From contig OZ024744.1 of assembly GCA_964016885.1 (NCBI GenBank), positions 136,152,001-136,216,000 on the forward strand: a DNA stretch of 64,000 bases, written 5' to 3'. The DNA comes from Eledone cirrhosa. Its lineage: Eukaryota. Position 1 is the first letter of the stretch, and each line of letters starts with the position of its first letter. The notes beneath the pieces were generated by a model that saw nothing but the letters and a program-made list of their open reading frames with translations, did no database searches and was not told the origin of the DNA. This document shows, piece by piece, positions 1 to 55,800 of this stretch. The position numbers were made by a program, and so were the translations under genes.

Positions 1-2581
1 GTTTATCTACAGAATAGAAGAAGTGGAGATCATGATAGAAGAAATAACATGAATCCAGAGGAGAGAGAAGTTTATCTGCAGAAAAGAAGTGGAGATCATG
101 ACAGAAGAAATAACAGGAATCCAGAGGAGAGAGAAGTTTATCTACAGAATAGAAGTGGAGATCATGGTAGAAGAAATAACATGAATCCAGAGGAGAGAGA
201 AGTTTATCTACAGAATAAAAGAAGTGGAGATCATGGTAGAAGAAATAACATGAATCCAGAGGAGAGATAAGCTTATCTACAGAATAGAAGTGGAGATCAT
301 GGTAGAAGAAATAACATGAATCCAGAGGAGAGAGAAGTTTATCTACAGAATAGAAGAAGTGGAGATCATGATAGAAGAAATAACATGAATCCAGAGGAGA
401 GAGAAGTTTATCTACAGAATAGAAGAAGTGGAGATCATGACAGAAGAAATAACAGGAATCCAGAGGAGAGAGAAGTTTATCTACAGAATAGAAGTGGAGA
501 TCATGGTAGAAGAAATAACATGAATCCAGAGGAGAGAGAAGCTTATCTACAGGATAGAAGAAGTGGAGATCGTGGTAGAAGAAATAACAGGAATCCAGAG
601 GAGAGAGAAGTTTATCTACAGAATAAAAGAAGTGGAGATCATGGTAGAAGAAATAACATGAATCCAGAGGAGAGAGAAGCTTATCTACAGAATAGAAGTG
701 GAGATCATGGTAGAAGAAATAACATGAATCCAGAGGAGAGAGAAGTTTATCTACAGAATAAAAGAAGTGGAGATCATGGTAGAAGAAATAACATGAATCC
801 AGCGGAGAGAGAAGCTTATCTACAGAATAGAAGTGGAGATCATGGTAGAAGAAATAACATGAATCCAGAGGAGAGAGAAGTATTTCTACAGAATAGAAGA
901 AGTGGAGATCATGGTAGAAGAAATAACATGAATCCAGAGGAGAGAGAGGCTTATCTACAGAATAGAAGTGGAAATCATGATAGAAGAAATAACATGAATC
1001 CAGAGGAGAGAGAAGCTTATCTACAGAATAGAAGTGGAGATCATGATAGAAGAAATAACATGAATCCAGAGGAGAGAGAAGCTTATCTACAGAATAGAAG
1101 TGGAGATCATGATAGAAGAAATAACATGAATCCAGAGGAGAGAGAAGCTTATCTACAGAATAGAAGTGGAGATCATGATAGAAGAAATAACATGAATCCA
1201 GAGGAGAGAGAAGTATTTCTACAGAATAGAAGAAGTGGAGATCATGGTAGGAGAAATAACATGAATCCAGAGGAGAGAGAAGCTTATCTACAGAATAGAA
1301 GAAGTGGAGATCATGATAGAAGAAATAACATGAATCCAGAGGAGAGAGAAGCTTCTCTACAGAATAGAAGTGGAGATCATGGTAGAAGAAATAACATGAA
1401 TCCAGAGGAGAGAGAAGTTTATCTACAGAATAGAAGAAGTGGAGATCATGATAGAAGAAATAACATGAATCCAGAGGAGAGAGAAGTTTATCTACAGAAT
1501 AGAAGAAGTGGAGATCATGGTAGAAGAAATAACAGGAATCCAGAGGAGAGAGAAGTTTATCTACAGAATAGAAGAAGTGGAGATCATGATAGAAGAAATA
1601 ACATGAATCCAGAGGAGAGAGAAGTTTATCTACAGAAAAGAAGTGGAGATCATGACAGAAGAAATAACAGGAATCCAGAGGAGAGAGAAGTTTATCTACA
1701 GAATAGAAGTGGAGATCATGGTAGAAGAAATAACATGAATCCAGAGGAGAGAGAAGTTTATCTACAGAATAGAAGTGGAGATCATGATAGAAGAAATAAC
1801 ATGAATCCAGAGGAGAGAGTAGCTTATCTACAGAATAGAAGAAGTGGAGATCATGATAGAAGAAATAACATGAATCCAGAGGAGAGAGAAGCTTCTCTAC
1901 AGAATAAAAGTGGAGATCATGGTAGAAGAAATAACATGAATCCAGAGGAGAGAGAAGCTTATCTACAGAATAGAAGTGGAGATCATGGTAGAAGAAATAA
2001 CATGAATCCAGAGGAGAGAGAAGTTTATCTACAGAATAGAAGAAGTGGAGATCATGATAGAAGAAATAACATGAATCCAGAGGAGAGAGAAGCTTATCTA
2101 CAGAATAGAAGAAGTGGAGATCATGATAGAAGAAATAACATGAATCCAGAGGAGAGAGAAGCTTCTCTACAGAATAGAAGTGGAGATCATGGTAGAAGAA
2201 ATAACATGAATCCAGAGGAGAGAGAAGCTTATCTACAGAATAGAAGAAGTAGAGATCATGATAGAAGAAATAACATGAATCCAGAGGAGAGAGAAGCTTC
2301 TCTACAGAATAGAAGTGGAGATCATGGTAGAAGAAATAACATGAATCCAGAGGAGAGAGAAGTTTATCTACAGAATAGAAGAAGTGGAGATCATGATAGA
2401 AGAAATAACATGAATCCAGAGGAGAGAGAAGTTTATCTACAGAATAGAAGTGGAGATCATGATAGAAGAAATAACATGAATCCAGAGGAGAGAGAAGCTT
2501 ATCTACAGAATAGAAGAAGTGGAGATCATGATAGAAGAAATAACATGAATCCAGAGGAGAGAGAAGCTTCTCTACAGAATA

Positions 2582-5500
2582 GAAGTGGAGATCATGGTAG
2601 AAGAAATAACATGAATCCAGAGGAGAGAGAAGTTTATCTACAGAATAGAAGTGGAGATCATGGTAGAAGAAATAACATGAATCCAGAGGAGAGAGAAGTT
2701 TATCTACAGAATAAAAGAAGTGGAGATCATGGTAGAAGAAATAACATGAATCCAGAGGAGAGAGAAGTTTATCTACAGAATAGAAGTGGAGATCATGATA
2801 GAAGAAATAACATGAATCCAGAGGAGAGAGTAGCTTATCTACAGAATAGAAGAAGTGGAGATCATGATAGAAGAAATAACATGAATCCAGAGGAGAGAGA
2901 AGCTTCTCTACAGAATAGAAGTGGAGATCATGGCAGAAGAAATAACATGAATCCAGAGGAGAGAGAAGCTTATCTACAGAATAGAAGAAGTAGAGATCAT
3001 GATAGAAGAAATAACATGAATCCAGAGGAGAGAGAAGCTTCTCTACAGAATAGAAGTGGAGATCATGGTAGAAGAAATAACATGAATCCAGAGGAGAGAG
3101 AAGTTTATCTACAGAATAGAAGAAGTGGAGATCATGATAGAAGAAATAACATGAATCCAGAGGAGAGAGAAGCTTATCTACAGAATAGAAGTGGAGATCA
3201 TGATAGAAGAAATAACATGAATCCAGAGGAGAGAGTAGCTTATCTACAGAATAGAAGTGGAGATCATGATAGAAGAAATAACATGAATCCAGAGGAGAGA
3301 GAAGTATTTCTACAGAATAGAAGAAGTGGAGATCATGGTAGAAGAAATAACATGAATCCAGAGGAGAGAGAAGTTTATCTACAGAATAGAAGTGGAGATC
3401 ATGATAGAAGAAATAACATGAATCCAGAGGAGAGAGTAGCTTATCTACAGAATAGAAGAAGTGGAGATCATGATATAAGAAAAAACATGAATCCAGAGGA
3501 GAGAGAGGCTTCTCTACAGAATAGAAGTGGAGATCATGGTAGAAGAAATAACATGAATCCAGAGGAGAGAGAAGCTTATCTACAGAATAGAAGAAGTAGA
3601 GATCATGATAGAAGAAATAACATGAATCCAGAGGAGAGAGAAGTTTATCTACAGAATAGAAGTGGAGATCATGATAGAAGAAATAACATGAATCCAGAGG
3701 AGAGAGAAGCTTATCTACAGAATAGAAGAAGTGGAGATCATGATAGAAGAAATAACATGAATCCAGGAGAGAGAGAAGTATTTCTACAGAATAGAAGAAG
3801 TGGAGATCATGATAGAAGAAATAACATGAATCCAGAGGAGAGAGAAGCTTCTCTACAGAATAGAAGTGGAGATCATGGTAGAAGAAATAACATGAATCCA
3901 GAGGAGAGAGAAGCTTATCTACAGAATAGAAGAAGTAGAGATCATGATAGAAGAAATAACATGAATCCAGAGGAGAGAGAAGTTTATCTACAGAATAAAA
4001 GAAGTGGAGATCATGGTAGAAGAAATAACATGAATCCAGAGGAGAGAGAAGTTTATCTACAGAATAAAAGAAGTGGAGATCATGGTAGAAGAAATAACAT
4101 GAATCCAGAGGAGAGATAGGCTTATCTACAGAATAGAAGTGGAAATCATGATAGAAGAAATAACATGAATCCAGAGGAGATCATGATAGAAGAAATAACA
4201 TGAATCCAGAGGAGAGAGAAGCTTATCTACAGAATAGAAGTGGAGATCATGATAGAAGAAATAACATGAATCCAGAGGAGAGAGAAGCTTATCTACAGAA
4301 TAGAAGTGGAGATCATGATAGAAGAAATAACATGAATTCAGAGGAGAGAGAAGTATTTCTACAGAATAGAAGAAGTGGAGATCATGGTAGAAGAAATAAC
4401 ATGAATCCAGAGGAGAGAGAAGTTTATCTACAGAATAGAAGTGGAGATCATGATAGAAGAAATAACATGAATCCAGAGGAGAGAGTAGCTTATCTACAGA
4501 ATAGAAGAAGTGGAGATCATGATAGAAGAAATAACATGAATCCAGAGGAGAGAGAAGCTTCTCTACAGAATAGAAGTGGAGATCATGGTAGAAGAAATAA
4601 CATGAATCCAGAGGAGAGAGAAGCTTATCTACAGAACAGAAGAAGTGCAGATCATGATAGAAGAAATAACATGAATCCAGAGGAGAGAGAAGCTTCTCTA
4701 CAGAATAGAAGTGGAGATCATGGTAGAAGAAATAACATGAATCCAGAGGAGAGAGAAGTTTATCTACAGAATAGAAGAAGTGGAGATCATGATAGAAGAA
4801 ATAACATGAATCCAGAGGAGAGAGAAGTTTATCTACAGAATAGAAGAAGTGGAGATCATGGTAGAAGAAATAACAGGAATCCAGAGGAGAGAGAAGTTTA
4901 TCTACAGAATAGAAGTGGAGATCATGATAGAAGAAATAACATGAATCCAGAGGAGAGAGAAGTTTATCTACAGAATAGAAGAAGTGGAGATCATGATAGA
5001 AGAAATAACATGAATCCAGAGGAGAGAGAAGCTTCTCTACAGAATAGAAGTGGAGATCATGGTAGAAGAAATAACAGGAATCCAGAGGAGAGAGAAGTTT
5101 ATCTACAGAATAGAAGAAGTGGAGATCATGATAGAAGAAATAACATGAATCCAGAGGAGAGAGAAGCTTCTCTACAGAATAGAAGTGGAGATCATGGTAG
5201 AAGAAATAACATGAATCCAGAGGAGAGAGAAGTTTATCTACAGAATAGAAGTGGAGATCATGGTAGAAGAAATAACATGAATCAAGAGGAGAGAGAAGTT
5301 TATCTACAGAATAGAAGTGGAGATCATGATAGAAGAAATAACATGAATCCAGAGGAGAGAGTAGCTTATCTACATAATAGAAGAAGTGGAGATCATGATA
5401 GAAGAAATAACATGAATCCAGAGGAGAGAGAAGCTTCTCTACAGAATAGAAGTGGAGATCATGGTAGAAGAAATAACATGAATCCAGAGGAGAGAGAAGC

Positions 5501-8500
5501 TTATCTACAGAATAGAAGAAGTAGAGATCATGATAGAAGAAATAACATGAATCCAGAGGAGAGAGAAGCTTCTCTACAGAATAGAAGTGGAGATCATGGT
5601 AGAAGAAATAACATGAATCCAGAGGAGAGAGAAGTTTATCTACAGAATAGAAGAAGTGGAGATCATGATAGAAGAAATAACATGAATCCAGAGGAGAGAG
5701 AAGTTTATCTACAGAATAGAAGTGGAGATCATGATAGAAGAAATAACATGAATCCAGAGGAGAGAGAAGCTTATCTACAGAATAGAAGAAGTGGAGATCA
5801 TGATAGAAGAAATAACATGAATCCAGAGGAGAGAGAAGCTTCTCTACAGAATAGAAGTGGAGATCATGGTAGAAGAAATAACATGAATCCAGAGGAGAGA
5901 GAAGTTTATCTACAGAATAGAAGTGGAGATCATGGTAGAAGAAATAACATGAATCCAGAGGAGAGAGAAGTTTATCTACAGAATAAAAGAAGTGGAGATC
6001 ATGGTAGAAGAAATAACATGAATCCAGAGGAGAGAGAAGTTTATCTACAGAATAGAAGTGGAGATCATGATAGAAGAAATAACATGAATCCAGAGGAGAG
6101 AGTAGCTTATCTACAGAATAGAAGAAGTGGAGATCATGATAGAAGAAATAACATGAATCCAGAGGAGAGAGAAGCTTCTCTACAGAATAGAAGTGGAGAT
6201 CATGGCAGAAGAAATAACATGAATCCAGAGGAGAGAGAAGCTTATCTACAGAATAGAAGAAGTAGAGATCATGATAGAAGAAATAACATGAATCCAGAGG
6301 AGAGAGAAGCTTCTCTACAGAATAGAAGTGGAGATCATGGTAGAAGAAATAACATGAATCCAGAGGAGAGAGAAGTTTATCTACAGAATAGAAGAAGTGG
6401 AGATCATGATAGAAGAAATAACATGAATCCAGAGGAGAGAGAAGTTTATCTACAGAATAGAAGTGGAGATCATGATAGAAGAAACAACATGAATCCAGAG
6501 GAGAGAGAAGCTTATCTACAGAATAGAAGAAGTGGAGATCATGATAGAAGAAATAAAATGAATCCAGAGGAGAGAGAAGCTTCTCTACAGAATAGAAGTG
6601 GAGATCATGGTAGAAGAAATAACATGAATCCAGAGGAGAGAGAAGTTTATCTACAGAATAGAAGTGGAGATCATGGTAGAAGAAATAACATGAATCCAGA
6701 GGAGAGAGAAGTTTATCTACAGAATAAAAGAAGTGGAGATCATGGTAGAAGAAATAACATGAATCCAGAGGAGAGAGAAGTTTATCTACAGAATAAAAGA
6801 AGTGGAGATCATGGTAGAAGAAATAACATGAATCCAGAGGAGAGAGAAGTTTATCTACAGAATAGAAGAAGTGGAGATCATGACAGAAGAAATAACAGGA
6901 ATCCAGAGGAGAGAGAAGTTTATCTACAGAATAGAAGTGGAGATCATGGTAGAAGAAATAACATGAATCCAGAGGAGAGAGAAGTTTATCTACAGAATAA
7001 AAGAAGTGGAGATCATGGTAGAAGAAATAACATGAATCCAGAGGAGAGAGAAGTTTATCTACAGAATAAAAGAAGTGGAGATCATGGTAGAAGAAATAAC
7101 ATGAATCCAGAGGAGAGAGAAGTTTATCTACAGAATAAAAGAAGTGGAGATCATGGTAGAAGAAATAACATGAATCCAGAGGAGAGAGAGGCTTATCTAC
7201 AGAATAGAAGTGGAAATCATGATAGAAGAAATAACATGAATCCAGAGGAGATCATGATAGAAGAAATAACATGAATCCAGAGGAGAGAGAAGCTTATCTA
7301 CAGAATAGAAGTGGAGATCATGATAGAAGAAATAACATGAATCCAGAGGAGAGAGAAGCTTATCTACAGAATAGAAGTGGAGATCATGATAGAAGAAATA
7401 ACATGAATCCAGAGGAGAGAGAAGTATTTCTACAGAATAGAAGAAGTGGAGATCATGGTAGGAGAAATAACATGAATCCAGAGGAGAGAGAAGTTTATCT
7501 ACAGAATAGAAGTGGAGATCATGATAGAAGAAATAACATGAATCCAGAGGAGAGAGTAGCTTATCTACAGAATAGAAGAAGTGGAGATCATGATAGAAGA
7601 AATAACATGAATCCAGAGGAGAGAGAAGCTTCTCTACAGAATAGAAGTGGAGATCATGGTAGAAGAAATAACATGAATCCAGAAGAGAGAGAAGCTTATC
7701 TACAGAATAGAAGAAGTGGAGATCATGATAGAAGAAATAACATGAATCCAGAGGAGAGAGAAGCTTCTCTACAGAATAGAAGTGGAGATCATGGTAGAAG
7801 AAATAACATGAATCCAGAGGAGAGAGAAGTTTATCTACAGAATAGAAGAAGTGGAGATCATGATAGAAGAAATAACATGAATCCAGAGGAGAGAGAAGTT
7901 TATCTACAGAATAGAAGAAGTGGAGATCATGGTAGAAGAAATAACAGGAATCCAGAGGAGAGAGAAGTTTATCTACAGAATAGAAGAAGTGGAGATCATG
8001 ATAGAAGAAATAACATGAATCCAGAGGAGAGAGAAGTTTATCTGCAGAAAAGAAGTGGAGATCATGACAGAAGAAATAACAGGAATCCAGAGGAGAGAGA
8101 AGTTTATCTACAAAATAGAAGTGGAGATCATGGTAGAAGAAATAACATGAATCCAGAGGAGAGAGAAGTTTATCTACAGAATAAAAGAAGTGGAGATCAT
8201 GGTAGAAGAAATAACATGAATCCAGAGGAGAGATAAGCTTATCTACAGAATAGAAGTGGAGATCATGGTAGAAGAAATAACATGAATCCAGAGGAGAGAG
8301 AAGTTTATCTACAGAATAAAAGAAGTGGAGATCATGGTAGAAGAAATAACATGAATCCAGAGGAGAGAGAAGTTTATCTACAGAATAGAAGTGGAGATCA
8401 TGATAGAAGAAATAACATGAATCCAGAGGAGAGAGTAGCTTATCTACAGAATAGAAGAAGTGGAGATCATGATAGAAGAAATAACATGAATCCAGAGGAG

Positions 8501-11500
8501 AGAGAAGCTTCTCTACAGAATAGAAGTGGAGATCATGGCAGAAGAAATAACATGAATCCAGAGGAGAGAGAAGCTTATCTACAGAATAGAAGAAGTAGAG
8601 ATCATGATAGAAGAAATAACATGAATCCAGAGGAGAGAGAAGCTTCTCTACAGAATAGAAGTGGAGATCATGGTAGAAGAAATAACATGAATCCAGAGGA
8701 GAGAGAAGTTTATCTACAGAATAGAAGAAGTGGAGATCATGATAGAAGAAATAACATGAATCCAGAGGAGAGAGAAGTTTATCTACAGAATAGAAGTGGA
8801 GATCATGATAGAAGAAACAACATGAATCCAGAGGAGAGAGAAGCTTATCTACAGAATAGAAGAAGTGGAGATCATGATAGAAGAAATAAAATGAATCCAG
8901 AGGAGAGAGAAGCTTCTCTACAGAATAGAAGTGGAGATCATGGTAGAAGAAATAACATGAATCCAGAGGAGAGAGAAGTTTATCTACAGAATAGAAGTGG
9001 AGATCATGGTAGAAGAAATAACATGAATCCAGAGGAGAGAGAAGTTTATCTACAGAATAAAAGAAGTGGAGATCATGGTAGAAGAAATAACATGAATCCA
9101 GAGGAGAGAGAAGTTTATCTACAGAATAAAAGAAGTGGAGATCATGGTAGAAGAAATAACATGAATCCAGAGGAGAGAGAAGTTTATCTACAGAATAGAA
9201 GAAGTGGAGATCATGACAGAAGAAATAACAGGAATCCAGAGGAGAGAGAAGTATATCTACAGAATAGAAGTGGAGATCATGGTAGAAGAAATAACATGAA
9301 TCCAGAGGAGAGAGAAGTTTATCTACAGAATAAAAGAAGTGGAGATCATGGTAGAAGAAATAACATGAATCCAGAGGAGAGAGAAGTTTATCTACAGAAT
9401 AAAAGAAGTGGAGATCATGGTAGAAGAAATAACATGAATCCAGAGGAGAGAGAAGTTTATCTACAGAATAAAAGAAGTGGAGATCATGGTAGAAGAAATA
9501 ACATGAATCCAGAGGAGAGAGAGGCTTATCTACAGAATAGAAGTGGAAATCATGATAGAAGAAATAACATGAATCCAGAGGAGATCATGATAGAAGAAAT
9601 AACATGAATCCAGAGGAGAGAGAAGCTTATCTACAGAATAGAAGTGGAGATCATGATAGAAGAAATAACATGAATCCAGAGGAGAGAGAAGCTTATCTAC
9701 AGAATAGAAGTGGAGATCATGATAGAAGAAATAACATGAATCCAGAGGAGAGAGAAGTATTTCTACAGAATAGAAGAAGTGGAGATCATGGTAGGAGAAA
9801 TAACATGAATCCAGAGGAGAGAGAAGTTTATCTACAGAATAGAAGTGGAGATCATGATAGAAGAAATAACATGAATCCAGAGGAGAGAGTAGCTTATCTA
9901 CAGAATAGAAGAAGTGGAGATCATGATAGAAGAAATAACATGAATCCAGAGGAGAGAGAAGCTTCTCTACAGAATAGAAGTGGAGATCATGGTAGAAGAA
10001 ATAACATGAATCCAGAAGAGAGAGAAGCTTATCTACAGAATAGAAGAAGTGGAGATCATGATAGAAGAAATAACATGAATCCAGAGGAGAGAGAAGCTTC
10101 TCTACAGAATAGAAGTGGAGATCATGGTAGAAGAAATAACATGAATCCAGAGGAGAGAGAAGTTTATCTACAGAATAGAAGAAGTGGAGATCATGATAGA
10201 AGAAATAACATGAATCCAGAGGAGAGAGAAGTTTATCTACAGAATAGAAGAAGTGGAGATCATGGTAGAAGAAATAACAGGAATCCAGAGGAGAGAGAAG
10301 TTTATCTACAGAATAGAAGAAGTGGAGATCATGATAGAAGAAATAACATGAATCCAGAGGAGAGAGAAGTTTATCTGCAGAAAAGAAGTGGAGATCATGA
10401 CAGAAGAAATAACAGGAATCCAGAGGAGAGAGAAGTTTATCTACAGAATAGAAGTGGAGATCATGGTAGAAGAAATAACATGAATCCAGAGGAGAGAGAA
10501 GTTTATCTACAGAATAAAAGAAGTGGAGATCATGGTAGAAGAAATAACATGAATCCAGAGGAGAGATAAGCTTATCTACAGAATAGAAGTGGAGATCATG
10601 GTAGAAGAAATAACATGAATCCAGAGGAGAGAGAAGTTTATCTACAGAATAGAAGAAGTGGAGATCATGATAGAAGAAATAACATGAATCCAGAGGAGAG
10701 AGAAGTTTATCTACAGAATAGAAGAAGTGGAGATCATGACAGAAGAAATAACAGGAATCCAGAGGAGAGAGAAGTTTATCTACAGAATAGAAGTGGAGAT
10801 CATGGTAGAAGAAATAACATGAATCCAGAGGAGAGAGAAGCTTATCTACAGGATAGAAGAAGTGGAGATCGTGGTAGAAGAAATAACAGGAATCCAGAGG
10901 AGAGAGAAGTTTATCTACAGAATAAAAGAAGTGGAGATCATGGTAGAAGAAATAACATGAATCCAGAGGAGAGAGAAGTTTATCTACAGAATAGAAGTGG
11001 AGATCATGGTAGAAGAAATAACATGAATCCAGAGGAGAGAGAAGTTTATCTACAGAATAGAAGAAGTGGAGATCATGATAGAAGAAATAACATGAATCCA
11101 GAGGAGAGAGAAGTTTATCTACAGAATAGAAGAAGTGGAGATCATGATAGAAGAAATAACATGAATCCAGAGGAGAGAGAAGCTTATCTACAGAATAGAA
11201 GAAGTGGAGATCATGATAGAAGAAATAACATGAATCCAGAGGAGAGAGAAGTTTATCTACAGAATAGAAGAAGTGGAGATCATGATAGAAGAAATAACAT
11301 GAATCCAGAGGAGAGAGAAGTTTATCTACAGAATAGAAGTGGAGATCATGATAGAAGAAATAACATGAATCCAGAGGAGAGAGAAGCTTATCTACAGAAT
11401 AGAAGAAGTGGAGATCATGATAGAAGAAATAACATGAATCCAGAGGAGAGAGAAGCTTCTCTACAGAATAGAAGTGGAGATTATGGTAGAAGAAATAACA

Positions 11501-39003: not shown

Positions 39004-42000
39004 AAAGAAGTGGAGATCATGGTAGAAGAAATAACATGAATCCAGAGGAGAGAGAAGTTTATCTACAGAATAGAAGAAGTGGAGATCATGACAGAAGAAA
39101 TAACAGGAATCCAGAGGAGAGAGAAGTTTATCTACAGAATAAAAGAAGTGGAGATCATGGTAGAAGAAATAACATGAATCCAGAGGAGAGAGAAGTTTAT
39201 CTACAGAATAAAAGAAGTGGAGATCATGGTAGAAGAAATAACATGAATCCAGAGGAGAGAGAAGCTTATCTACAGAATAGAAGTGGAAATCATGATAGAA
39301 GAAATAACATGAATCCAGAGGAGATCATGATAGAAGAAATAACATGAATCCAGAGGAGAGAGAAGCTTATCTACAGAATAGAAGTGGAGATCATGATAGA
39401 AGAAATAACATGAATCCAGAGGAGAGAGAAGCTTATCTACAGAATAGAAGTGGAGATCATGATAGAAGAAATAACATGAATCCAGAGGAGAGAGAAGTAT
39501 TTCTACAGAATAGAAGAAGTGGAGATCATGGTAGAAGAAATAACATGAATCCAGAGGAGAGAGAAGTTTATCTACAGAATAGAAGTGGAGATCATGATAG
39601 AAGAAATAACATGAATCCAGAGGAGAGAGTAGCTTATCTACAGAATAGAAGAAGTGGAGATCATGATAGAAGAAATAACATGAATCCAGAGGAGAGAGAA
39701 GCTTCTCTACAGAATAGAAGTGGAGATCATGGTAGAAGAAATAACATGAATCCAGAGGAGAGAGAAGCTTATCTACAGAATAGAAGAAGTGCAGATCATG
39801 ATAGAAGAAATAACATGAATCCAGAGGAGAGAGAAGCTTCTCTACAGAATAGAAGTGGAGATCATGGTAGAAGAAATAACATGAATCCAGAGGAGAGAGA
39901 AGTTTATCTACAGAATAGAAGAAGTGGAGATCATGATAGAAGAAATAACATGAATCCAGAGGAGAGAGAAGTTTATCTACAGAATAGAAGAAGTGGAGAT
40001 CATGGTAGAAGAAATAACAGGAATCCAGAGGAGAGAGAAGTTTATCTACAGAATAGAAGTGGAGATCATGGTAGAAGAAATAACATGAATCCAGAGGAGA
40101 GAGAAGTTTATCTACAGAATAGAAGAAGTGGAGATCATGATAGAAGAAATAACATGAATCCAGAGGAGAGAGAAGTTTATCTACAGAATAGAAGTGGAGA
40201 TCATGATAGAAGAAATAACATGAATCCAGAGGAGAGAGAAGTTTATCTACAGAATAGAAGTGGAGATCATGATAGAAGAAATAACATGAATCCAGAGGAG
40301 AGAGAAGCTTATCTACAGAATAGAAGAAGTGGAGATCATGATAGAAGAAAAAACATGAATCCAGAGGAGAGAGAAGTTTATCTACAGAATAGAAGAAGTG
40401 GAGATCATGATAGAAGAAATAACATGAATCCAGAGGAGAGAGAAGTTTATCTACAGAATAGAAGTGGAGATCATGGTAGAAGAAATAACATGAATCCAGA
40501 GGAGAGAGAAGTTTATCTACAGAATAGAAGAAGTGGAGATCATGATAGAAGAAATAACATGAATCCAGAGGAGAGAGAAGTTTATCTACAGAATAGAAGA
40601 AGTGGAGATCATGATAGAAGAAATAACATGAATCCAGAGGAGAGAGAAGCTTATCTACAGAATAGAAGAAGTGGAGATCATGATAGAAGAAATAACATGA
40701 ATCCAGAGGAGAGAGAAGTTTATCTACAGAATAGAAGGAGTGGAGATCATGATAGAAGAAATAATATGAATCCAGAGGAGAGAGAAGTTTATCTACAGAA
40801 TAGAAGTGGAGATCATGATAGAAGAAATAACATGAATCCAGAGGAGAGAGAAGTTTATCTACAGAATAGAAGAAGTGGAGATCATGATAGAAGAAATAAC
40901 ATGAATCCAGAGGAGAGAGAAGTTTATCTACAGAATAGAAGAAGTGGAGATCATGGTAGAAGAAATAACAGGAATCCAGAGGAGAGAGAAGTTTATCTAC
41001 AGAATAGAAGAAGTGGAGATCATGATAGAAGAAATAACATGAATCCAGAGGAGAGAGAAGTTTATCTGCAGAAAAGAAGTGGAGATCATGACAGAAGAAA
41101 TAACAGGAATCCAGAGGAGAGAGAAGTTTATCTACAGAATAGAAGTGGAGATCATGGTAGAAGAAATAACATGAATCTAGAGGAGAGAGAAGTTTATCTA
41201 CAGAATAAAAGAAGTGGAGATCATGGTAGAAGAAATAACATGAATCCAGAGGAGAGATAAGCTTATCTACAGAATAGAAGTGGAGATCATGGTAGAAGAA
41301 ATAACATGAATCCAGAGGAGAGAGAAGTTTATCTACAGAATAGAAGAAGTGGAGATCATGATAGAAGAAATAACATGAATCCAGAGGAGAGAGAAGTTTA
41401 TCTACAGAATAGAAGAAGTGGAGATCATGACAGAAGAAATAACAGGAATCCAGAGGAGAGAGAAGTTTATCTACAGAATAGAAGTGGAGATCATGGTAGA
41501 AGAAATAACATGAATCCAGAGGAGAGAGAAGTTTATCTACAGAATAAAAGAAGTGGAGATCATGGTAGAAGAAATAACATGAATCCAGAGGAGAGAGAAG
41601 TTTATCTACAGAATAGAAGTGGAGATCATGGTAGAAGAAATAACATGAATCCAGAGGAGAGAGAAGTTTATCTACAGAATAGAAGAAGTGGAGATCATGA
41701 TAGAAGAAATAACATGAATCCAGAGGAGAGAGAAGTTTATCTACAGAATAGAAGAAGTGGAGATCATGATAGAAGAAATAACATGAATCCAGAGGAGAGA
41801 GAAGCTTATCTACAGAATAGAAGAAGTGGAGATCATGATAGAAGAAATAACATGAATCCAGAGGAGAGAGAAGTTTATCTACAGAATAGAAGAAGTGGAG
41901 ATCATGATAGAAGAAATAACATGAATCCAGAGGAGAGAGAAGTTTATCTACAGAATAGAAGTGGAGATCATGATAGAAGAAATAACATGAATCCAGAGGA

Positions 42001-45000
42001 GAGAGAAGCTTATCTACAGAATAGAAGAAGTGGAGATCATGATAGAAGAAATAACATGAATCCAGAGGAGAGAGAAGCTTCTCTACAGAATAGAAGTGGA
42101 GATCATGGTAGAAGAAATAACATGAATCCAGAGGAGAGAGAACTTTATCTACAGAATAGAAGTGGAGATCATGGTAGAAGAAATAACATGAATCCAGCGG
42201 AGAGAGAAGCTTATCTACAGAATAGAAGTGGAGATCATGGTAGAAGAAATAACATGAATCCAGAGGAGAGAGAAGTTTATCTACAGAATAAAAGAAGTGG
42301 AGATCATGGTAGAAGAAATAACATGAATCCAGCGGAGAGAGAAGCTTATCTACAGAATAGAAGTGGAGATCATGGTAGAAGAAATAACATGAATCCAGAG
42401 GAGAGAGAAGTATTTCTACAGAATAGAAGAAGTGGAGATCATGGTAGAAGATATAACATGAATCCAGAGGAGAGAGAAGTTTATCTACAGAATAGAAGAA
42501 GTGGAGATCATGACAGAAGAAATAACAGGAATCCAGAGGAGAGAGAAGTTTATCTACAGAATAGAAGTGGAGATCATGGTAGAAGAAATAACATGAATCC
42601 AGAGGAGAGAGAAGTTTATCTACAGAATAAAAGAAGTGGAGATCATGGTAGAAGAAATAACATGAATCCAGAGGAGAGAGAAGTTTATCTACAGAATAAA
42701 AGAAGTGGAGATCATGGTAGAAGAAATAACATGAATCCAGAGGAGAGAGAGGCTTATCTACAGAATAGAAGTGGAAATCATGATAGAAGAAATAACATGA
42801 ATCCAGAGGAGAGAGAAGCTTATCTACAGAATAGAAGTGGAGATCATGATAGAAGAAATAACATGAATCCAGAGGAGAGAGAAGCTTATCTACAGAATAG
42901 AAGTGGAGATCATGATAGAAGAAATAACATGAATCCAGAGGAGAGAGAAGTTTATCTACAGAATAGAAGTGGAGATCATGATAGAAGAAATAACATGAAT
43001 CCAGAGGAGAGAGTAGCTTATCTACAGAATAGAAGAAGTGGAGATCATGATAGAAGAAAAAACATGAATCCAGAGGAGAGAGAAGCTTCTCTACAGAATA
43101 GAAGTGGAGATCATGGTAGAAGAAATAACATGAATCCAGAGGAGAGGGTAGCTTATCTACAGAATAGAAGAAGTGGAGATCATGATAGAAGAAATAACAT
43201 GAATCCAGAGGAGAGAGAAGCTTCTCTACAGAATAGAAGTGGAGATCATGGTAGAAGAAATAACATGAATCCAGAGGAGAGAGAAGTTTATCTACAGAAT
43301 AGAAGAAGTGGAGATCATGATAGAAGAAATAACATGAATCCAGAGGAGAGAGAAGTTTATCTACAGAATAGAAGTGGAGATCATGATAGAAGAAATAACA
43401 TGAATCCAGAGGAGAGAGAAGCTTATCTACAGAATAGAAGAAGTGGAGATCATGATAGAAGAAATAACATGAATCCAGAGGAGAGAGAAGCTTCTCTACA
43501 GAATAGAAGTGGAGATCATGGTAGAAGAAATAACATGAATCCAGAGGAGAGAGAAGTTTATCTACAGAATAGAAGTGGAGATCATGGTAGAAGAAATAAC
43601 ATGAATCCAGAGGAGAGAGAAGTTTATCTACAGAATAAAAGAAGTGGAGATCATGGTAGAAGAAATAACATGAATCCAGAGGAGAGAGAAGCTTATCTAC
43701 AGAATAGAAGTGGAGATCATGGTAGAAGAAATAACATGAATCCAGAGGAGAGAGAAGTTTATCTACAGAATAGAAGAAGTGGAGATCATGATAGAAGAAA
43801 TAACATGAATCCAGAGGAGAGAGAAGTTTATCTACAGAATAGAAGAAGTGGAGATCATGACAGAAGAAATAACAGGAATCCAGAGGAGAGAGAAGTTTAT
43901 CTACAGAATAGAAGTGGAGATCATGGTAGAAGAAATAACATGAATCCAGAGGAGAGAGAAGTTTATCTACAGAATAAAAGAAGTGGAGATCATGGTAGAA
44001 GAAATAACATGAATCCAGAGGAGAGAGAAGTTTATCTACAGAATAAAAGAAGTGGAGATCATGGTAGAAGAAATAACATGAATCCAGAGGAGAGAGAAGT
44101 TTATCTACAGAATAGAAGAAGTGGAGATCATGACAGAAGAAATAACAGGAATCCAGAGGAGAGAGAAGTTTATCTACAGAATAAAAGAAGTGGAGATCAT
44201 GGTAGAAGAAATAACATGAATCCAGAGGAGAGAGAAGTTTATCTACAGAATAAAAGAAGTGGAGATCATGGTAGAAGAAATAACATGAATCCAGAGGAGA
44301 GAGAAGCTTATCTACAGAATAGAAGTGGAAATCATGATAGAAGAAATAACATGAATCCAGAGGAGATCATGATAGAAGAAATAACATGAATCCAGAGGAG
44401 AGAGAAGCTTATCTACAGAATAGAAGTGGAGATCATGATAGAAGAAATAACATGAATCCAGAGGAGAGAGAAGCTTATCTACAGAATAGAAGTGGAGATC
44501 ATGATAGAAGAAATAACATGAATCCAGAGGAGAGAGAAGTATTTCTACAGAATAGAAGAAGTGGAGATCATGGTAGAAGAAATAACATGAATCCAGAGGA
44601 GAGAGAAGTTTATCTACAGAATAGAAGTGGAGATCATGATAGAAGAAATAACATGAATCCAGAGGAGAGAGTAGCTTATCTACAGAATAGAAGAAGTGGA
44701 GATCATGATAGAAGAAATAACATGAATCCAGAGGAGAGAGAAGCTTCTCTACAGAATAGAAGTGGAGATCATGGTAGAAGAAATAACATGAATCCAGAGG
44801 AGAGAGAAGCTTATCTACAGAATAGAAGAAGTGCAGATCATGATAGAAGAAATAACATGAATCCAGAGGAGAGAGAAGCTTCTCTACAGAATAGAAGTGG
44901 AGATCATGGTAGAAGAAATAACATGAATCCAGAGGAGAGAGAAGTTTATCTACAGAATAGAAGAAGTGGAGATCATGATAGAAGAAATAACATGAATCCA

Positions 45001-45890
45001 GAGGAGAGAGAAGTTTATCTACAGAATAGAAGAAGTGGAGATCATGGTAGAAGAAATAACAGGAATCCAGAGGAGAGAGAAGTTTATCTACAGAATAGAA
45101 GTGGAGATCATGGTAGAAGAAATAACATGAATCCAGAGGAGAGAGAAGTTTATCTACAGAATAGAAGAAGTGGAGATCATGATAGAAGAAATAACATGAA
45201 TCCAGAGGAGAGAGAAGTTTATCTACAGAATAGAAGTGGAGATCATGATAGAAGAAATAACATGAATCCAGAGGAGAGAGAAGTTTATCTACAGAATAGA
45301 AGTGGAGATCATGATAGAAGAAATAACATGAATCCAGAGGAGAGAGAAGCTTATCTACAGAATAGAAGAAGTGGAGATCATGATAGAAGAAAAAACATGA
45401 ATCCAGAGGAGAGAGAAGTTTATCTACAGAATAGAAGAAGTGGAGATCATGATAGAAGAAATAACATGAATCCAGAGGAGAGAGAAGTTTATCTACAGAA
45501 TAGAAGTGGAGATCATGGTAGAAGAAATAACATGAATCCAGAGGAGAGAGAAGTTTATCTACAGAATAGAAGAAGTGGAGATCATGATAGAAGAAATAAC
45601 ATGAATCCAGAGGAGAGAGAAGTTTATCTACAGAATAGAAGAAGTGGAGATCATGATAGAAGAAATAACATGAATCCAGAGGAGAGAGAAGCTTATCTAC
45701 AGAATAGAAGAAGTGGAGATCATGATAGAAGAAATAACATGAATCCAGAGGAGAGAGAAGTTTATCTACAGAATAGAAGGAGTGGAGATCATGATAGAAG
45801 AAATAATATGAATCCAGAGGAGAGAGAAGTTTATCTACAGAATAGAAGTGGAGATCATGATAGAAGAAATAACATGAATCCAGAGGAGAG
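35778..45890 (+). repeat. Tandem duplication with a 5,042-bp period
   Basis: ORF starts 36264/41306 and 39344/44386 are 5042 apart. The rare variants aatcta (36136/41178), agaagg and aataat recur at +5042. Boundaries are approximate. Confidence 0.93.
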
Positions 45891-46143
45891 ACAAGCTTAT
45901 CTACAGAATAGAAGAAGTGGAGATCATGATAGAAGAAATAACATGAATCCAGAGGAGAGAGAAGCTTCTCTACAGAATAGAAGTGGAGATCATGGTAGAA
46001 GAAATAACATGAATCCAGAGGAGAGAGAAGTTTATCTACAGAATAGAAGTGGAGATCATGGTAGAAGAAATAACATGAATCCAGAGGAGAGAGAAGTTTA
46101 TCTACAGAATTAAAGAAGTGGAGATCATGATAGAAGAAATAAC

Positions 46144-49100
46144 ATGAATCCAGAGGAGAGAGAAGTTTATCTACAGAATAGAAGAAGTGGAGATCATGAT
46201 AGAAGAAATAACATGAATCCAGAGGAGAGAGAAGTTTATCTACAGAATAGAAGTGGAGATCATGATAGAAGAAATAACATGAATCCAGAGGAGAGAGAAG
46301 CTTATCTACAGAATAGAAGAAGTGGAGATCATGATAGAAGAAATAACATGAATCCAGAGGAGAGAGAAGCTTCTCTACAGAATAGAAGTGGAGATCATGG
46401 TAGAAGAAATAACATGAATCCAGAGGAGAGAGAACTTTATCTACAGAATAGAAGTGGAGATCATGGTAGAAGAAATAACATGAATCCAGCGGAGAGAGAA
46501 GCTTATCTACAGAATAGAAGTGGAGATCATGGTAGAAGAAATAACATGAATCCAGAGGAGAGAGAAGTTTATCTACAGAATAAAAGAAGTGGAGATCATG
46601 GTAGAAGAAATAACATGAATCCAGAGGAGAGAGAAGTTTATCTACAGAATAAAAGAAGTGGAGATCATGGTAGAAGAAATAACATGAATCCAGAGGAGAG
46701 AGAAGCTTATCTACAGAATAGAAGTGGAAATCATGATAGAAGAAATAACATGAATCCAGAGGAGAGAGAAGCTTATCTACAGAATAGAAGTGGAGATCAT
46801 GATAGAAGAAATAACATGAATCCAGAGGAGAGAGAAGCTTATCTACAGAATAGAAGTGGAGATCATGATAGAAGAAATAACATGAATCCAGAGGAGAGAG
46901 TAGCTTATCTACAGAATAGAAGTGGAGATCATGGTAGAAGAAATAACATGAATCCAGAGGAGAGAGAAGTTTATCTACAGAATAGAAGAAGTGGAGATCA
47001 TGATAGAAGAAATAACATGAATCCAGAGGAGAGAGAAGTATTTCTACAGAATAGAAGAAGTGGAGATCATGATAGAAGAAATAACATGAATCCAGAGGAG
47101 AGAGAAGCTTCTCTACAGAATAGAAGTGGAGATCATGGTAGAAGAAATAACATGAATCCAGAGGAGAGAGAAGTTTATCTACAGAATAAAAGAAGTGGAG
47201 ATCATGGTAGAAGAAATAACATGAATCCAGAGGAGAGAGAAGTATTTCTACAGAATAGAAGTGGAGATCATGATAGAAGAAATAACATGAATCCAGAAGA
47301 GAGAGAAGCTTATCTACAGAATAGAAGAAGTGGAGATCACGATAGAAGAAATAACATGAATCCAGAGGAGAGAGAAGCTTCTCTACAGAATAGAAGTGGA
47401 GATCATGGTAGAAGAAATAACATGAATCCAGAGGAGAGAGAAGTTTATCTACAGAATAGAAGTGGAGATCATGGTAGAAGAAATAACATGAATCCAGAGG
47501 AGAGAGAAGTTTATCTACAGAATAAAAGAAGTGGAGATCATGGTAGAAGAAATAACATGAATCCAGAGGAGAGAGAAGCTTATCTACAGAATAGAAGTGG
47601 AGATCATGGTAGAAGAAATAACATGAATCCAGAGGAGAGAGAAGTTTATCTACAGAATAGAAGAAGTGGAGATCATGATAGAAGAAATAACATGAATCCA
47701 GAGGAGAGAGAAGTTTATCTACAGAATAGAAGAAGTGGAGATCATGACAGAAGAAATAACAGGAATCCAGAGGAGAGAGAAGTTTATCTACAGAATAGAA
47801 GTGGAGATCATGGTAGAAGAAATAACATGAATCCAGAGGAGAGAGAAGTTGATCTACAGAATAAAAGAAGTGGAGATCATGGTAGAAGAAATAACATGAA
47901 TCCAGAGGAGAGAGAAGTTTATCTACAGAATAAAAGAAGTGGAGATCATGGTAGAAGAAATAACATGAATCCAGAGGAGAGAGAAGTTTATCCACAGAAT
48001 AGAAGAAGTGGAGATCATGACAGAAGAAATAACAGGAATCCAGAGGAGAGAGAAGTTTATCTACAGAATAGAAGTGGAGATCATGGTAGAAGAAATAACA
48101 TGAATCCAGAGGAGAGAGAAGTTTATCTACAGAATAAAAGAAGTGGAGATCATGGTAGAAGAAATAACATGAATCCAGAGGAGAGAGAAGTTTATCTACA
48201 GAATAAAAGAAGTGGAGATCATGGTAGAAGAAATAACATGAATCCAGAGGAGAGAGAAGCTTCTCTACAGAATAGAAGTGGAGATCATGGTAGAAGAAAT
48301 AACATGAATCCAGAGGAGAGAGAAGTTTATCTACAGAATAGAAGAAGTGGAGATCATGATAGAAGAAATAACATGAATCCAGAGGAGAGAGAAGTTTATC
48401 TACAGAATAGAAGAAGTGGAGATCATGACAGAAGAAATAACAGGAATCCAGAGGAGAGAGAAGCTTATCTACAGAATAAAAGAAGTGGGGATCATGGTAG
48501 AAGAAATAACATGAATCCAGAGGAGAGAGAAGTTTATCTACAGAATAAAAGAAGTGGAGATCATGGTAGAAGAAATAACATGAATCCAGAGGAGAGAGAG
48601 GCTTATCTACAGAATAGAAGTGGAGATCATGATAGAAGAAATAACATGAATCCAGAGGAGAGAGAAGCTTATCTACAGAATAGAAGTGGAGATCATGATA
48701 GACGAAATAACATGAATCCAGAGGAGAGAGAAGCTTATCTACAGAATAGAAGTGGAGATCATGGTAGAAGAAATAACATGAATCCAGAGGAGAGAGAAGC
48801 TTATCTACAGAATAGAAGTGGAGATCATGATAGAAGAAATAACATGAATCCAGAGGAGAGAGAAGCTTATCTACAGAATAGAAGTGGAGATCATGATAGA
48901 AGAAATAACATGAATCCAGAGGAGAGAGAAGTTTATCTACAGAATAGAAGTGGAGATCATGGTAGAAGAAATAACATGAATCCAGAGGAGAGAGAAGTTT
49001 ATCTACAGAATAGAAGAAGTGGAGATCATGGTAGAAGAAATAACATGAATCCAGAGGAGAGAGAAGTTTATCTACAGAATAGAAGTGGAGATCATGATAG

Positions 49101-49206
49101 AAGAAATAACATGAATCCAGAGGAAAGAGAGGCTTATCTACAGAATAGAAGTGGAGATCATGGTAGAAGAAATGACATGAATCTAGAGGTTGAGAAACAA
49201 AGTTGA
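46144..49206 (+). CDS. Terminal open repeat ORF (1020 aa of STPR-like repeats); relic of the Helitron RepHel N-terminus, expression unknown
   Basis: Uninterrupted frame up to the array edge. Upstream array segments share this reading but are broken by recurrent stops and frameshifts. Confidence 0.2.
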   Translation: MNPEEREVYLQNRRSGDHDRRNNMNPEEREVYLQNRSGDHDRRNNMNPEEREAYLQNRRSGDHDRRNNMNPEEREASLQNRSGDHGRRNNMNPEERELYLQNRSGDHGRRNNMNPAEREAYLQNRSGDHGRRNNMNPEEREVYLQNKRSGDHGRRNNMNPEEREVYLQNKRSGDHGRRNNMNPEEREAYLQNRSGNHDRRNNMNPEEREAYLQNRSGDHDRRNNMNPEEREAYLQNRSGDHDRRNNMNPEERVAYLQNRSGDHGRRNNMNPEEREVYLQNRRSGDHDRRNNMNPEEREVFLQNRRSGDHDRRNNMNPEEREASLQNRSGDHGRRNNMNPEEREVYLQNKRSGDHGRRNNMNPEEREVFLQNRSGDHDRRNNMNPEEREAYLQNRRSGDHDRRNNMNPEEREASLQNRSGDHGRRNNMNPEEREVYLQNRSGDHGRRNNMNPEEREVYLQNKRSGDHGRRNNMNPEEREAYLQNRSGDHGRRNNMNPEEREVYLQNRRSGDHDRRNNMNPEEREVYLQNRRSGDHDRRNNRNPEEREVYLQNRSGDHGRRNNMNPEEREVDLQNKRSGDHGRRNNMNPEEREVYLQNKRSGDHGRRNNMNPEEREVYPQNRRSGDHDRRNNRNPEEREVYLQNRSGDHGRRNNMNPEEREVYLQNKRSGDHGRRNNMNPEEREVYLQNKRSGDHGRRNNMNPEEREASLQNRSGDHGRRNNMNPEEREVYLQNRRSGDHDRRNNMNPEEREVYLQNRRSGDHDRRNNRNPEEREAYLQNKRSGDHGRRNNMNPEEREVYLQNKRSGDHGRRNNMNPEEREAYLQNRSGDHDRRNNMNPEEREAYLQNRSGDHDRRNNMNPEEREAYLQNRSGDHGRRNNMNPEEREAYLQNRSGDHDRRNNMNPEEREAYLQNRSGDHDRRNNMNPEEREVYLQNRSGDHGRRNNMNPEEREVYLQNRRSGDHGRRNNMNPEEREVYLQNRSGDHDRRNNMNPEEREAYLQNRSGDHGRRNDMNLEVEKQS

Positions 49207-49253
49207 ACAGCGACGAAATGCCATAATTGAAGAGCAGCCTTTGAGCAGGGGCA

Positions 49254-49358
49254 ATGAACAGTGTAAGAGTTAAAGTGATACCTCAAAACGAATCCACCCA
49301 TGGCCGCAAAAGGGGAATCCCCTTTACTAGAAACATTGTATATAGGGAAGTGCTTTAA
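49254..49358 (+). pseudogene. Remnant of the Helitron RepHel (Pif1-like helicase) extreme C-terminus
   Basis: Manual translation gives MNSVRVKVIPQNESTHGRKRGIPFTRNIVYREVL*. T(K/R)N(I/V)VYxEVL followed by a stop is the characteristic end of Helitron helicases. It is too short to appear in the ORF track. Confidence 0.85.
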
Positions 49359-49524
49359 AGGATGTTTTTTATGTGTACTTTTATGAAATTAATTTTAAAT
49401 AAACTTACATTATTATACATAAAATAAAGGAAAATATAATTTTTTATTCAGCAAAATACTGCATATCAAATAACTTTGATTAACTGATAAATATTCATTG
49501 GACAAGATTTAAATTTCAAAGATT

Positions 49525-49554
49525 ATCCGTGAATTTTTTCACTGGTCCAGCTAG
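49525..49554 (+). terminator. Helitron 3' terminus: subterminal hairpin plus CTAG
   Basis: atccgtgaa-tttt-ttcactggt forms a 9-bp stem with one mismatch and one G:T pair, followed by ccag and CTAG (49551-49554). The next base is A rather than the canonical target-site T. Confidence 0.75.
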
Positions 49555-49575
49555 AATATATTAATACGTATAAAT

Positions 49576-55500: not shown

Positions 55501-55560
55501 CAAAAATACCCAGTACACACTGTAAAGTGGTTATGTAGGTGTCATAACAAAAAGTACCCT
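49576..55560 (+). repeat. 48-bp satellite A (~125 copies)
   Basis: Unit cacaacaaaaagtacccagtacacactgtaaagtggtcatgtaggtgt, with frequent 1-4 bp indels. Internal periods of 239 bp and 868 bp are visible. Confidence 0.98.
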
Positions 55561-55800
55561 CATGACCACTTTATAGTGTGTACTGGGTACTTTTTGTTGA
55601 CACCTACATGACCACTTTACAGTGTGTACTGGGTACTTTTTGTTGTGACACCTACATGACCTCTTTACAGTGTGTACTGGGTCCTTTTTGTTGTGACACC
55701 TACTAGATCACTTTACAGTGTACTGGGTACTTTTTGTTGTGACACCTACCAGACCACTTTACAGTTTACTGGGTACTTTTTGTTGTGACACCTACACGAC
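55561..55800 (-). repeat. About 5 copies of satellite A in inverted orientation
   Basis: catgaccactttacagtgtgtactgggtactttttgttgtgacaccta is the reverse complement of the unit. The switch is abrupt, at aagtaccct|catgaccac. Confidence 0.97.

Follow-up and report, generated by a model that had tools for sequence, protein, structure and literature searches.

The satellite at the left of the 64,000-bp stretch analysed here (the window) is the right-hand part of a single 160,608-bp Helitron on contig C28, which reads A|TC, a 548-bp head, ~2,375 units of 66/69 bp, a 370-bp tail, a hairpin and CTAG, with tandem repeat making up 99.4% of its length. Most likely, this is one non-autonomous Helitron1 insertion in which a repeat of the RepHel protein grew from a handful to ~2,375 units. 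The growth probably took place in situ, long after the element had inserted, through successive duplications of local blocks, and probably without protein function. Satellite origins are usually erased, and C28 is a rare case of a traceable satellite birth: one genome contains the full series, from a parent with 3 unlike units through deletion derivatives with 0–6 units and more uniform seeds with 4–15 units to runaway arrays of 733 and ~2,375 units, the larger still between both element ends. It also adds in-frame protein repeats, located at the N-terminus of animal RepHel transposases, to the sources from which satellite monomers can arise. The features are given below (window positions unless a contig is named).

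C28:136040947, 5′ end of the element: A|TC, 548-bp head, ATG at +413, TGA at codon 15
G000:C28:136041495, left edge of the array, 110.5 kb before the window starts
1..49176 (+), last 49 kb of the satellite (66/69-bp units; the 22-23-codon repeat of the RepHel N-terminus)
2674..38913 (+), 18,178-bp tandem block duplication in the array; copy 1 ~2674-20735, copy 2 18,178 bp beyond
49177..49242 (+), cut-down last parental repeat plus ...RRNAIIEEQPL, the end of the N-terminal piece
49242..49243 (+), deletion joint; zinc-finger-like region, Rep and most of the helicase gone
49243..49358 (+), final codons of RepHel (C-terminus, Pif1-type helicase), AMNSVRVKV...TRNIVYREVL*
49359..49526 (+), AT-rich Helitron 3′ non-coding part
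49527..49545 (+), subterminal hairpin
49551..49554 (+), 3′ terminus CTAG

Within the window, the array runs head to tail without interruption over positions 1-49,189. Its 721 unit intervals measure 69 bp (376), 66 bp (333), 101 bp (10) and 65 bp (2), and counting the 35-bp partial units brings the unit starts to 732. It continues for 111 kb to the left before the Helitron 5′ end is reached, and 1,196 of the 2,372 intervals of the whole array measure 69 bp and 1,132 measure 66 bp. The satellite described in the original prediction is therefore real, its actual size being ~160 kb and ~2,375 units rather than the >49 kb and >700 units proposed. The units encode the peptide MNPEERE(V/A)YLQN(R)RSGDH(D/G)RRNN and fall into 157 types arranged in nested, position-specific blocks; a long head-to-tail array with nested local higher-order blocks, here of up to ~23 kb, is characteristic of satellite DNA. 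The right edge lies ~298 kb from the contig end, with other satellites around it.

On its right side, the array runs directly into VRVKV (from 49263), TRNIVYREVL and its stop (49326-49358), an AT-rich UTR, the hairpin and CTAG, all where they had been described. What had been read as an IEEQPLS/GAMN linker is instead the joint of an out-of-frame deletion that brought the RepHel N-terminal region (IEEQPL, 49226-49242) next to the helicase C-terminus. The last parental repeat of C28 lacks ~23 bp compared to its siblings, which shifts the frame, and the array, IEEQPL and VRVKV each have a frame of their own. As predicted for a deletion derivative devoid of Rep and helicase, 3,911 bp present in the parental copy L055 are missing at the joint, which is crossed by one alignment in 23 of the 29 fetched siblings. 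At least 43 genomic matches to the tail were found, with 40 of 101 candidates scored, and in 4 of the 29 siblings the tail is directly preceded by 4–5 units, so the adjacency of array and tail is not the chance event that the original prediction had considered as its refutation. The hairpin (DNA fold −4.2 kcal/mol, z −2.25, equalled by 5 of 200 shuffles) has one stem mismatch relative to most siblings.

Helitron1 (HLE1) elements are defined, as PMC11417382 puts it, by a 5′ TC, a 3′ hairpin followed by CTRR, and RepHel-encoding relatives. At the 3′ end of C28, the hairpin precedes such a CTRR (CTAG), and sibling alignments stop at the same place. On the left, the array edge, the start codon and the 5′ TC after an A (C28:136040947), which the original prediction had proposed to look for, are all present, and 30 of 38 sibling 5′ ends also read A|TC. 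C28 thus resembles non-autonomous HLE1 deletion derivatives, which have the ends of their autonomous-type parent and a deleted RepHel, but differs from them in its size (160.6 kb), in consisting almost wholly of one tandem repeat and in the base following CTAG, which is A in this copy and T in 33 of 34 sibling ends. The target site hence has A on the left and A, not T, on the right, compared to the insertion between A and T expected of HLE1. No empty-site paralogue of the insertion was found, the 6 other matches being partial (75–82% identity).

The same genome contains broken parents of 4.6–4.9 kb with 3–6 unlike units, each of 69 bp, which run in frame into CxxC...CC and are followed by Rep and the Pif1 helicase, the combination expected of the parent. 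Copies L051, L053, L055 and L060 retain broken Helitron_like_N, Rep and Pif1 frames and the same head and/or tail, and the parental profile matches include Helitron_like_N (E 9.7e-54) and Pif1_2B (E 3.7e-20). Among 136 of 4,631 candidates scored, no intact RepHel ORF was found: the 8 family Rep matches (≥82% identity, 6 loci) all have open frames of at most 368 aa. As the genome searches scored the best candidates only, they could have missed a parent that is young and intact, or a third array that has diverged. The 28 short siblings have the same cap and fewer repeats (0–15 units, median 4), in line with the predicted expansion of a handful of N-terminal coding repeats. They have the Rep/helicase deletion in common, which places the deletion before the growth of the array.

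These copies show the first steps of the history and suggest the later ones. The parent, seen here in broken form, was a 4.6–4.9-kb Helitron with 3–6 unlike units before CxxC...CC, Rep and Pif1, from which a 3.9-kb internal deletion, also seen, produced a non-autonomous family that spread with 0–6 units. In one sub-lineage, the first units would then have been duplicated into a short, more uniform seed of 4–15 units, of the kind seen in two copies, on C9 and C13, and it may have reached several loci while RepHel was still active. Later, C28 and the array on C18 would have expanded independently, to ~2,375 and 733 units respectively, as blocks of ~2–23 kb were multiplied by unequal exchange or by template switching during replication. 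The seed clade (C28, L068, L079) has a support of only 86/95, the bootstrap being unsettled, and equally many shared derived sites occur in 4 of 300 sibling pairs.

The repeat region has a counterpart (48% identity) in an intact RepHel of 1,530 aa from elsewhere and aligns with the N-terminus of Helraiser (E 5.8e-4). The STPR domain consists of tandem helices that bind the DNA major groove, and the repeat had been called STPR-like. The resemblance holds for the 23-residue period (69-bp units in the parents and about half of the C28 intervals), the basic/charged composition, the N-terminal position in RepHel and the matching Arg6, Leu10 and Arg20, when compared with FMBP-1 as presented in PMC4856987 (PF21107); an STPR domain is also reported from HLE1 elements in the account of PMC11417382. 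However, about half of the C28 units have 22 codons, and of the hallmarks Glu1, Thr/Ser2 and Arg9 given in PMC4856987, Glu1 and Arg9 are absent and Thr/Ser2 occurs in the first unit only, in the register M1-N2...Y9 deduced from Arg6/Leu10. In addition, PF21107 did not match the array peptide, L053, L055 or proteins P0001, P0002 and P0003 even at an E-value of 1, while the model does match P0010. In the Protein Atlas, the top score was 0.83, with none at 0.9, and the STPR cluster, at 0.77, serves as a lead only.

In the Octopus BTB proteins P0002, P0003 and P0012, the first 120 residues correspond to the same Helitron N-terminus (69% identity). Among 8,000 scored candidates, the only other proteins with long arrays of the repeat were two Octopus BTB proteins, which is weak evidence of absence elsewhere. 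In the matching BTB locus of this genome, the downstream exons are present and no such first exon lies within 90 kb upstream; shorter O. bimaculoides BTB isoforms also lack the Helitron-like N-terminus. Judging from these sequences, a transfer from Helitron to host fits better, and an Octopus BTB gene appears to have taken up the RepHel N-terminal region as coding sequence. One transposon segment would then have met two opposite fates, a satellite here and, apparently, BTB coding sequence in Octopus. The reverse, a Helitron that captured the start of a BTB gene rather than carrying native RepHel sequence, could explain the 120 common residues, and gene capture by Helitrons is known in general (PMC12001565, as far as its account goes). 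It is exceedingly unlikely, as the parental region is in frame with CxxC...CC and homologous to the N-termini of Helraiser and an unrelated intact RepHel, and both the BTB locus of this genome and the shorter isoforms are without it.

The second array, on contig C18, counts 733 units, and the two loci together represent ~0.007% of the genome. They contain all 2,094 forward matches of one exact pattern (1,953 + 141) and 2,030 + 338 of the 2,373 matches of another. The two arrays end in the hairpin-CTAG of the same family; the cap is a different one, as C18 has an 83-bp end with another joint in place of the 370 bp of C28. No C18 5′ end was found within 11.6 kb.

The original prediction had raised the possibility of a mobile satellite cassette, in which RepHel moved an element already carrying a long multi-kb array, C28 and C18 being later-diverged copies of it. 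The common hairpin-CTAG and the nearly intact termini of C28 would agree with this, as would four derived markers common to both arrays, two of them nearly absent from the short siblings (GGT in 0/28, an AGG start in 1/28). It is not supported, and we consider it improbable given the different caps and joints, the lack of a C18 5′ end within 11.6 kb and the composition of the arrays: only 4 unit types, of 157 in C28 and 143 in C18, are common to both, no two-unit word is, the longest exact match is 99 bp, and each has private major variants (GTG, 247 vs 0; AAAAGA, 0 vs 366). Moreover, none of the 28 siblings falls between 15 and 733 units, the scored candidates include no intact parent, the array duplications are far younger than the element ends, and a model cited in PMC7492417 has mobility decreasing with array length. 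Ectopic gene conversion or template switching, by which one array later seeded the other within a pre-existing short Helitron copy, is rather unlikely and would change only the seed step of the history. It could account for the high frequency of GGT, GTT, the AGG start and the 66-bp length in both arrays and for the lack of a head in C18, but AGT and TCT are already present in the short C9 and C13 copies, as is the AGG start on C9, the heads of these copies cluster weakly with that of C28, and the arrays again have no two-unit word in common.

Independent growth from a short seed, which we favor, is consistent with the ages of the different parts of C28. Its head and tail differ from the sibling column mode at 17/499 and 10/302 non-CpG positions (3.3–3.4%), for sibling medians of 3.8% and 3.3%. 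The 18-kb internal duplication shows only 2 mismatches in 18,061 bp, and the 160-kb array contains 30 singleton substitutions. With ends as old as those of its siblings and so recent a duplication, growth was likely local and long after insertion. The size of the array at insertion is not readable because later turnover erases it, and a seed of >15 units is possible. The ends act as an internal clock, which opens the way to estimating how long and how uniform a seed must be for runaway growth to start, and the rate at which local blocks duplicate.

The fraction of eight-unit words common to adjacent 20-kb bins is 0.25–0.62 in the right three quarters of the array, and at most 0.07 for bins three or more apart. 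This positional gradient and the nested blocks of varied lengths and ages indicate many events, which largely refutes amplification of the array by RepHel in a single rolling-circle event. Such an origin, which we regard as extremely improbable, would suit an array inside Helitron termini and a 13-bp match to the family 5′ end right after CTAG (49556-49568), also seen in the head-to-tail siblings L006 and L009. Tandem arrays of this kind have been described (Xiong et al., summarised in PMC12628747), but these repeat the 5′ ends, and neither head nor tail sequence was found inside the C28 or C18 array; the array is also far younger than its termini.

An assembly artefact could explain part of the length or block structure if the near-identical copies of the 18-kb duplication were tandem-placed haplotypes, and a cluster of one-off 1-bp indels at units 357-374 resembles a low-quality join. 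This is also unlikely, though slightly less so than a mobile cassette, as the C28 array has no N gaps, its 157 unit types form nested position-specific blocks, and read-contig depth fits ~3,000 units within a factor of two (unit at ~2,900–4,750x the unique flank, ~3,100 units assembled; a rough estimate; the reads may be from the assembled sample). The flank contig X1 crosses the 5′ junction by 29 letters, for a bridging threshold of 31. RAD-seq run X9 and runs X4 and X5 had too little coverage to contribute.

Growth of internal tandem repeats of rolling-circle elements into satellite-sized arrays is known from the DINE-TR1 central repeats, oyster Cg_HINE, the 166-bp minisatellite of Xenopus Heli2Xen and Paramecium Helitron satellites (PMC12628747, PMC9659126, PMC7492417, PMC12001565, PMC13085455), where intermediates with only one element end, comparable to C18, are described. 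In these accounts, the repeats are non-coding (central, or outside the ORF), whereas the C28 monomer comes from a protein repeat of the transposase itself, and the element-bound arrays of the oyster survey reach at most 29 monomers, compared to ~2,375 units with both ends in C28. A precedent outside Helitrons is the Chenopodium satellite CficCl-61-40, derived, according to PMC7320549, from tnp2 of the CACTA element Jozin, with a monomer from transposase coding DNA still joined to a deletion derivative. That monomer of ~40 bp comes from part of a domain present in single copy, whereas the C28 unit was already an in-frame protein repeat, and the Chenopodium satellite makes up 3.8% of one genome, compared to 0.007% at two loci here. 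This precedent makes the route less unprecedented than the original prediction had it. A satellite from a RepHel protein repeat was not found in the literature searched (excluding most subscription papers, supplements, Repbase and Dfam), nor was an Octopus BTB-Helitron fusion. The mechanism is not new, and what is added is the source of the monomer.

The first 361 units (24.6 kb) form an unbroken frame of 8,195 codons, which would be longer if the indel cluster that ends it were a consensus error. Frame-disrupting unit types are 0/57 in these units and 8/95 beyond (p 0.02, with a boundary picked post hoc). Long open frames were rejected as proof of coding, as minus-strand frames reach 4,628 codons and substitutions are neutral. 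Nonsynonymous, synonymous and stop changes number 71/23/4 for 72.8/20.4/4.8 expected (N:S 39:10 in the first 365 units), so that amino-acid changes across the array look neutral. That the frame is still open is mostly due to the youth of the copies and to a unit length divisible by three. It is very improbable that the first 24.6 kb, directly behind the 5′ end of the Helitron, are maintained as an open frame that is transcribed and yields, on translation, a ~1-MDa chain of STPR-like DNA-binding helices, the satellite being a giant gene; if so, it would parallel the Octopus BTB proteins, whose N-terminus is formed by this repeat region. Single units folded no better than shuffles (z 0.04 and 1.07), and the two-unit + strand fold, one of four tests, reached z −2.4.

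Leftward of the window, where 200 kb were examined for the other edge of the array, the tandem 66- and 69-bp units that fill window positions 1-49,189 run without N gaps to position 136041495 of the same contig (C28). There they adjoin a 548-bp head, which starts A|TC at C28:136040947 and whose ATG, at +413, reads MEDRISQQREAARE with a stop at codon 15. The Helitron 5′ end that the original prediction placed beyond the array was thus found. Its figures of >49 kb and >700 copies hold for the window part, the full element being 160,608 bp long with 2,373 anchored unit starts; as three intervals are double units, the array comprises ~2,375 units of 157 distinct types, which translate as MNPEERE(V/A)YLQN(R)RSGDH(D/G)RRNN.

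All the landmarks named earlier are present in the 370-bp 3′ tail. IEEQPL is out of frame with the array, and VRVKV...TRNIVYREVL with both, so that the tail is a scar rather than a continuing gene, and IEEQPLS/GAMN, first taken for a linker, belongs to this frame-shifted scar. The base after the 3′ end is A instead of the T that follows 33 of 34 family 3′ ends. Directly after CTAG, window positions 49556-49568 match bases 4-16 of the family 5′ end exactly (13 bp), possibly the stub of a head-to-tail join (compare sibling loci L006 and L009).

A tail search of the 3.0-Gb assembly gave 43 matches (40 of 101 candidates scored). The alignment spans the IEEQPL|GAGCA joint in 23 of 29 siblings and begins just past it in the other 6; four of the 29 carry 4-5 units ahead of the tail. 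The head search gave 28 matches; once the element itself, a duplicate, a rearranged locus and a split locus had been dropped and four further loci included, 28 siblings remained, with 0-15 units each (median 4). Relatives with fewer repeats and the same cap do exist. Family ends are typical, with A|TC at 30 of 38 5′ ends. Twelve more stretches upstream of tail matches were examined. The expected parents combining the repeat with Rep and helicase were found, all of them broken: in the full-length elements L051 (4.6 kb), L053 and L055 (4.9 kb), three units are followed by CxxC...CC, Rep and helicase. Pfam recognized Helitron_like_N in L055 (E 9.7e-54) and Pif1_2B in L060, another broken parent (E 3.7e-20); relative to L055, the joint deletes 3,911 bp. 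No intact RepHel of this family occurred among 8 matches of at least 82% identity, whose open frames reach at most 368 aa. Other parental units have undergone small separate expansions at L076 (7 units), L068 (15) and L088/L134 (9+2), which show that this region is unstable across the family. Local duplication accounts for L079 and L082, which lie 33.8 kb apart (C9:17.35 and 17.39 Mb): the two truncated copies are nearly identical, and each breaks off after four satellite-type units.

By sequence comparison, the repeat belongs to RepHel itself. An intact 1,530-aa RepHel with 23-residue repeats at the matching place shares 48% identity with the parent N-terminus, which also aligns with Helraiser residues 5-136 (PDB 7LCC, E 5.8e-4). 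The proposed likeness to STPR holds for period and charge, but the PF21107 profile has no match in the repeat, and Glu1 and Arg9, given as conserved STPR residues in the available part of PMC4856987, are absent from it. The HELIANO study, in the portion available, describes STPRs as nearly confined to HLE1 elements (PMC11417382).

An exact 34-base pattern had 2,094 forward and 3 reverse matches in the genome, of which the C28 array accounts for 1,953 and an array on contig C18 for 141; a second pattern had 2,373 forward and 19 reverse, with 2,368 inside these arrays, and of the remaining 24 matches 23 are listed in short copies. Since nearly all matches fall there, C28 and C18 are the only large arrays carrying the tested words.

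C18:11361611-11411754, second array: 50 kb, 733 units, two parental end units kept.

Its joint is unlike that of C28, its terminal part measures 83 bp and finishes in CTAG|T, and no Helitron head was found within 11.6 kb. Unique units form its left edge, and zinc-finger-like repeats with an 84-bp period lie to its right. C18 units are more diverse than those of C28 (4.4% vs 2.5% from the column mode). Each array has private major variants; four unit types (of 157 and 143) are common to both, the longest exact match is 99 bases, and no common 2-unit word was found. AGG-start, GTT, GGT and 66-bp variants occur in both, while among short siblings GGT is present in 0/28 and AGG-start in 1/28. Later ectopic copying between the loci may have taken place; our reading is that one short common seed would have preceded separate growth. 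The C28 head clusters with the 15-unit L068 and the truncated, 4-unit L079 (support 86/95, bootstrap unsettled) and has five derived sites in common with each; among 300 sibling pairs, 4 match this level. The earlier proposal of a mobile satellite cassette found no support as regards the long array.

Of 499 non-CpG sites in the C28 head, 17 depart from the sibling column mode, and in the tail 10 of 302 do, in line with the medians for siblings (3.8% and 3.3%). Set against this, an 18,061-bp duplication inside the array has 2 mismatches, and singleton substitutions number 30 per 160 kb; the interior is therefore more than hundredfold younger than the ends, a relative figure. The ten longest exact runs have offsets of 3-23 kb, and eight-unit words are common mostly to adjacent 20-kb bins. 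Neither array contains head or tail sequence, unlike the rolling-circle arrays summarised in the available part of PMC12628747. Growth would have proceeded by local unequal exchange or template switching, which look alike in these data.

Distinct substitutions are neutral in both arrays, as nonsynonymous/synonymous/stop counts lie near expectation (C28, 71/23/4 vs 72.8/20.4/4.8; C18, 71/13/5 vs 66.9/16.9/5.2). Frame-breaking units number 63 of 2,372 in C28 and 182 of 732 in C18. From the ATG of the first unit, an 8,195-codon open frame covers the first 361 C28 units (C28:136041495-136066080), in which 0 of 57 unit types disrupt the frame vs 12 of 100 later (p 0.003, post hoc), or 0/57 vs 8/95 (p 0.02, post hoc) without a suspect indel cluster; N:S in the first 365 units is 39:10. 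The frame ends at this cluster, a series of 1-bp indels each seen once in units 357-374, which may be a low-quality assembly join. We treat the frame as chance plus youth, and its translation into a giant repeat protein as a very unlikely though novel alternative; a function of the satellite is unsupported.

In sequencing run X1, a contig matching the unique left flank exactly has depth 4.94 and the unit ~14,000-23,000. The ratio of ~2,900-4,750, which is summed contig depth rather than copy number and comes from what is possibly the source sample of the assembly, is consistent with the ~3,100 assembled units. Satellites arising from Helitron-internal repeats are established, as the available parts of PMC12628747, PMC9659126, PMC7492417, PMC12001565, PMC13085455 and PMC13404089 indicate, and transposase coding DNA has given rise to satellites as well (PMC7320549, likewise in part). 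Our literature search, with Repbase and Dfam outside it, found no published satellite built from a RepHel protein repeat. The C28 array is real and well explained, a newly seen form of a known route, and valuable in that satellite birth can be traced throughout.

In three species, Octopus vulgaris, O. sinensis and O. bimaculoides, predicted BTB proteins (P0002, P0003, P0012) open with the N-terminus of this Helitron family, at 69% identity across 53-54% of the query. When O. sinensis is compared with O. bimaculoides, residues 1-120 are identical at 110/120 positions (92%), similar to the BTB domain (95/101); a second, more canonical STPR-like stretch follows the first 120 aa. The Eledone cirrhosa BTB locus (C4:297.95-298.05 Mb) has the downstream exons and the second stretch, not the first, and no Helitron-type first exon was found within 90 kb. 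Judged from gene models only, exaptation of the Helitron into an Octopus BTB gene is likely.

On both sides of the C28 element lie copies of a 48-bp satellite family unrelated to it (window 49588-55800, 63687-64000 and beyond; 124 copies). One piece, at 55561-55800, is inverted; an array of 407 copies follows immediately beyond the right window edge, and relics occur left of the element. Another Helitron-like family, 45-47% identical to the present one in amino acids, recurs with an identical-size 1,036-aa open frame, spaced ~100-200 kb on C20; this frame is possibly a RepHel-derived gene within segmental duplications.

Window 58521-59810, 40-bp minisatellite: 32 copies, 94% matches.
C20:3.5-5.2 Mb, C27:13.1-15.5 Mb, C19:35-40 Mb and C16:0.5-0.8 Mb, Helitron-like family with the 1,036-aa frame.

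A further Helitron family has an unbroken 1,718-aa frame at C2:315.53 Mb.
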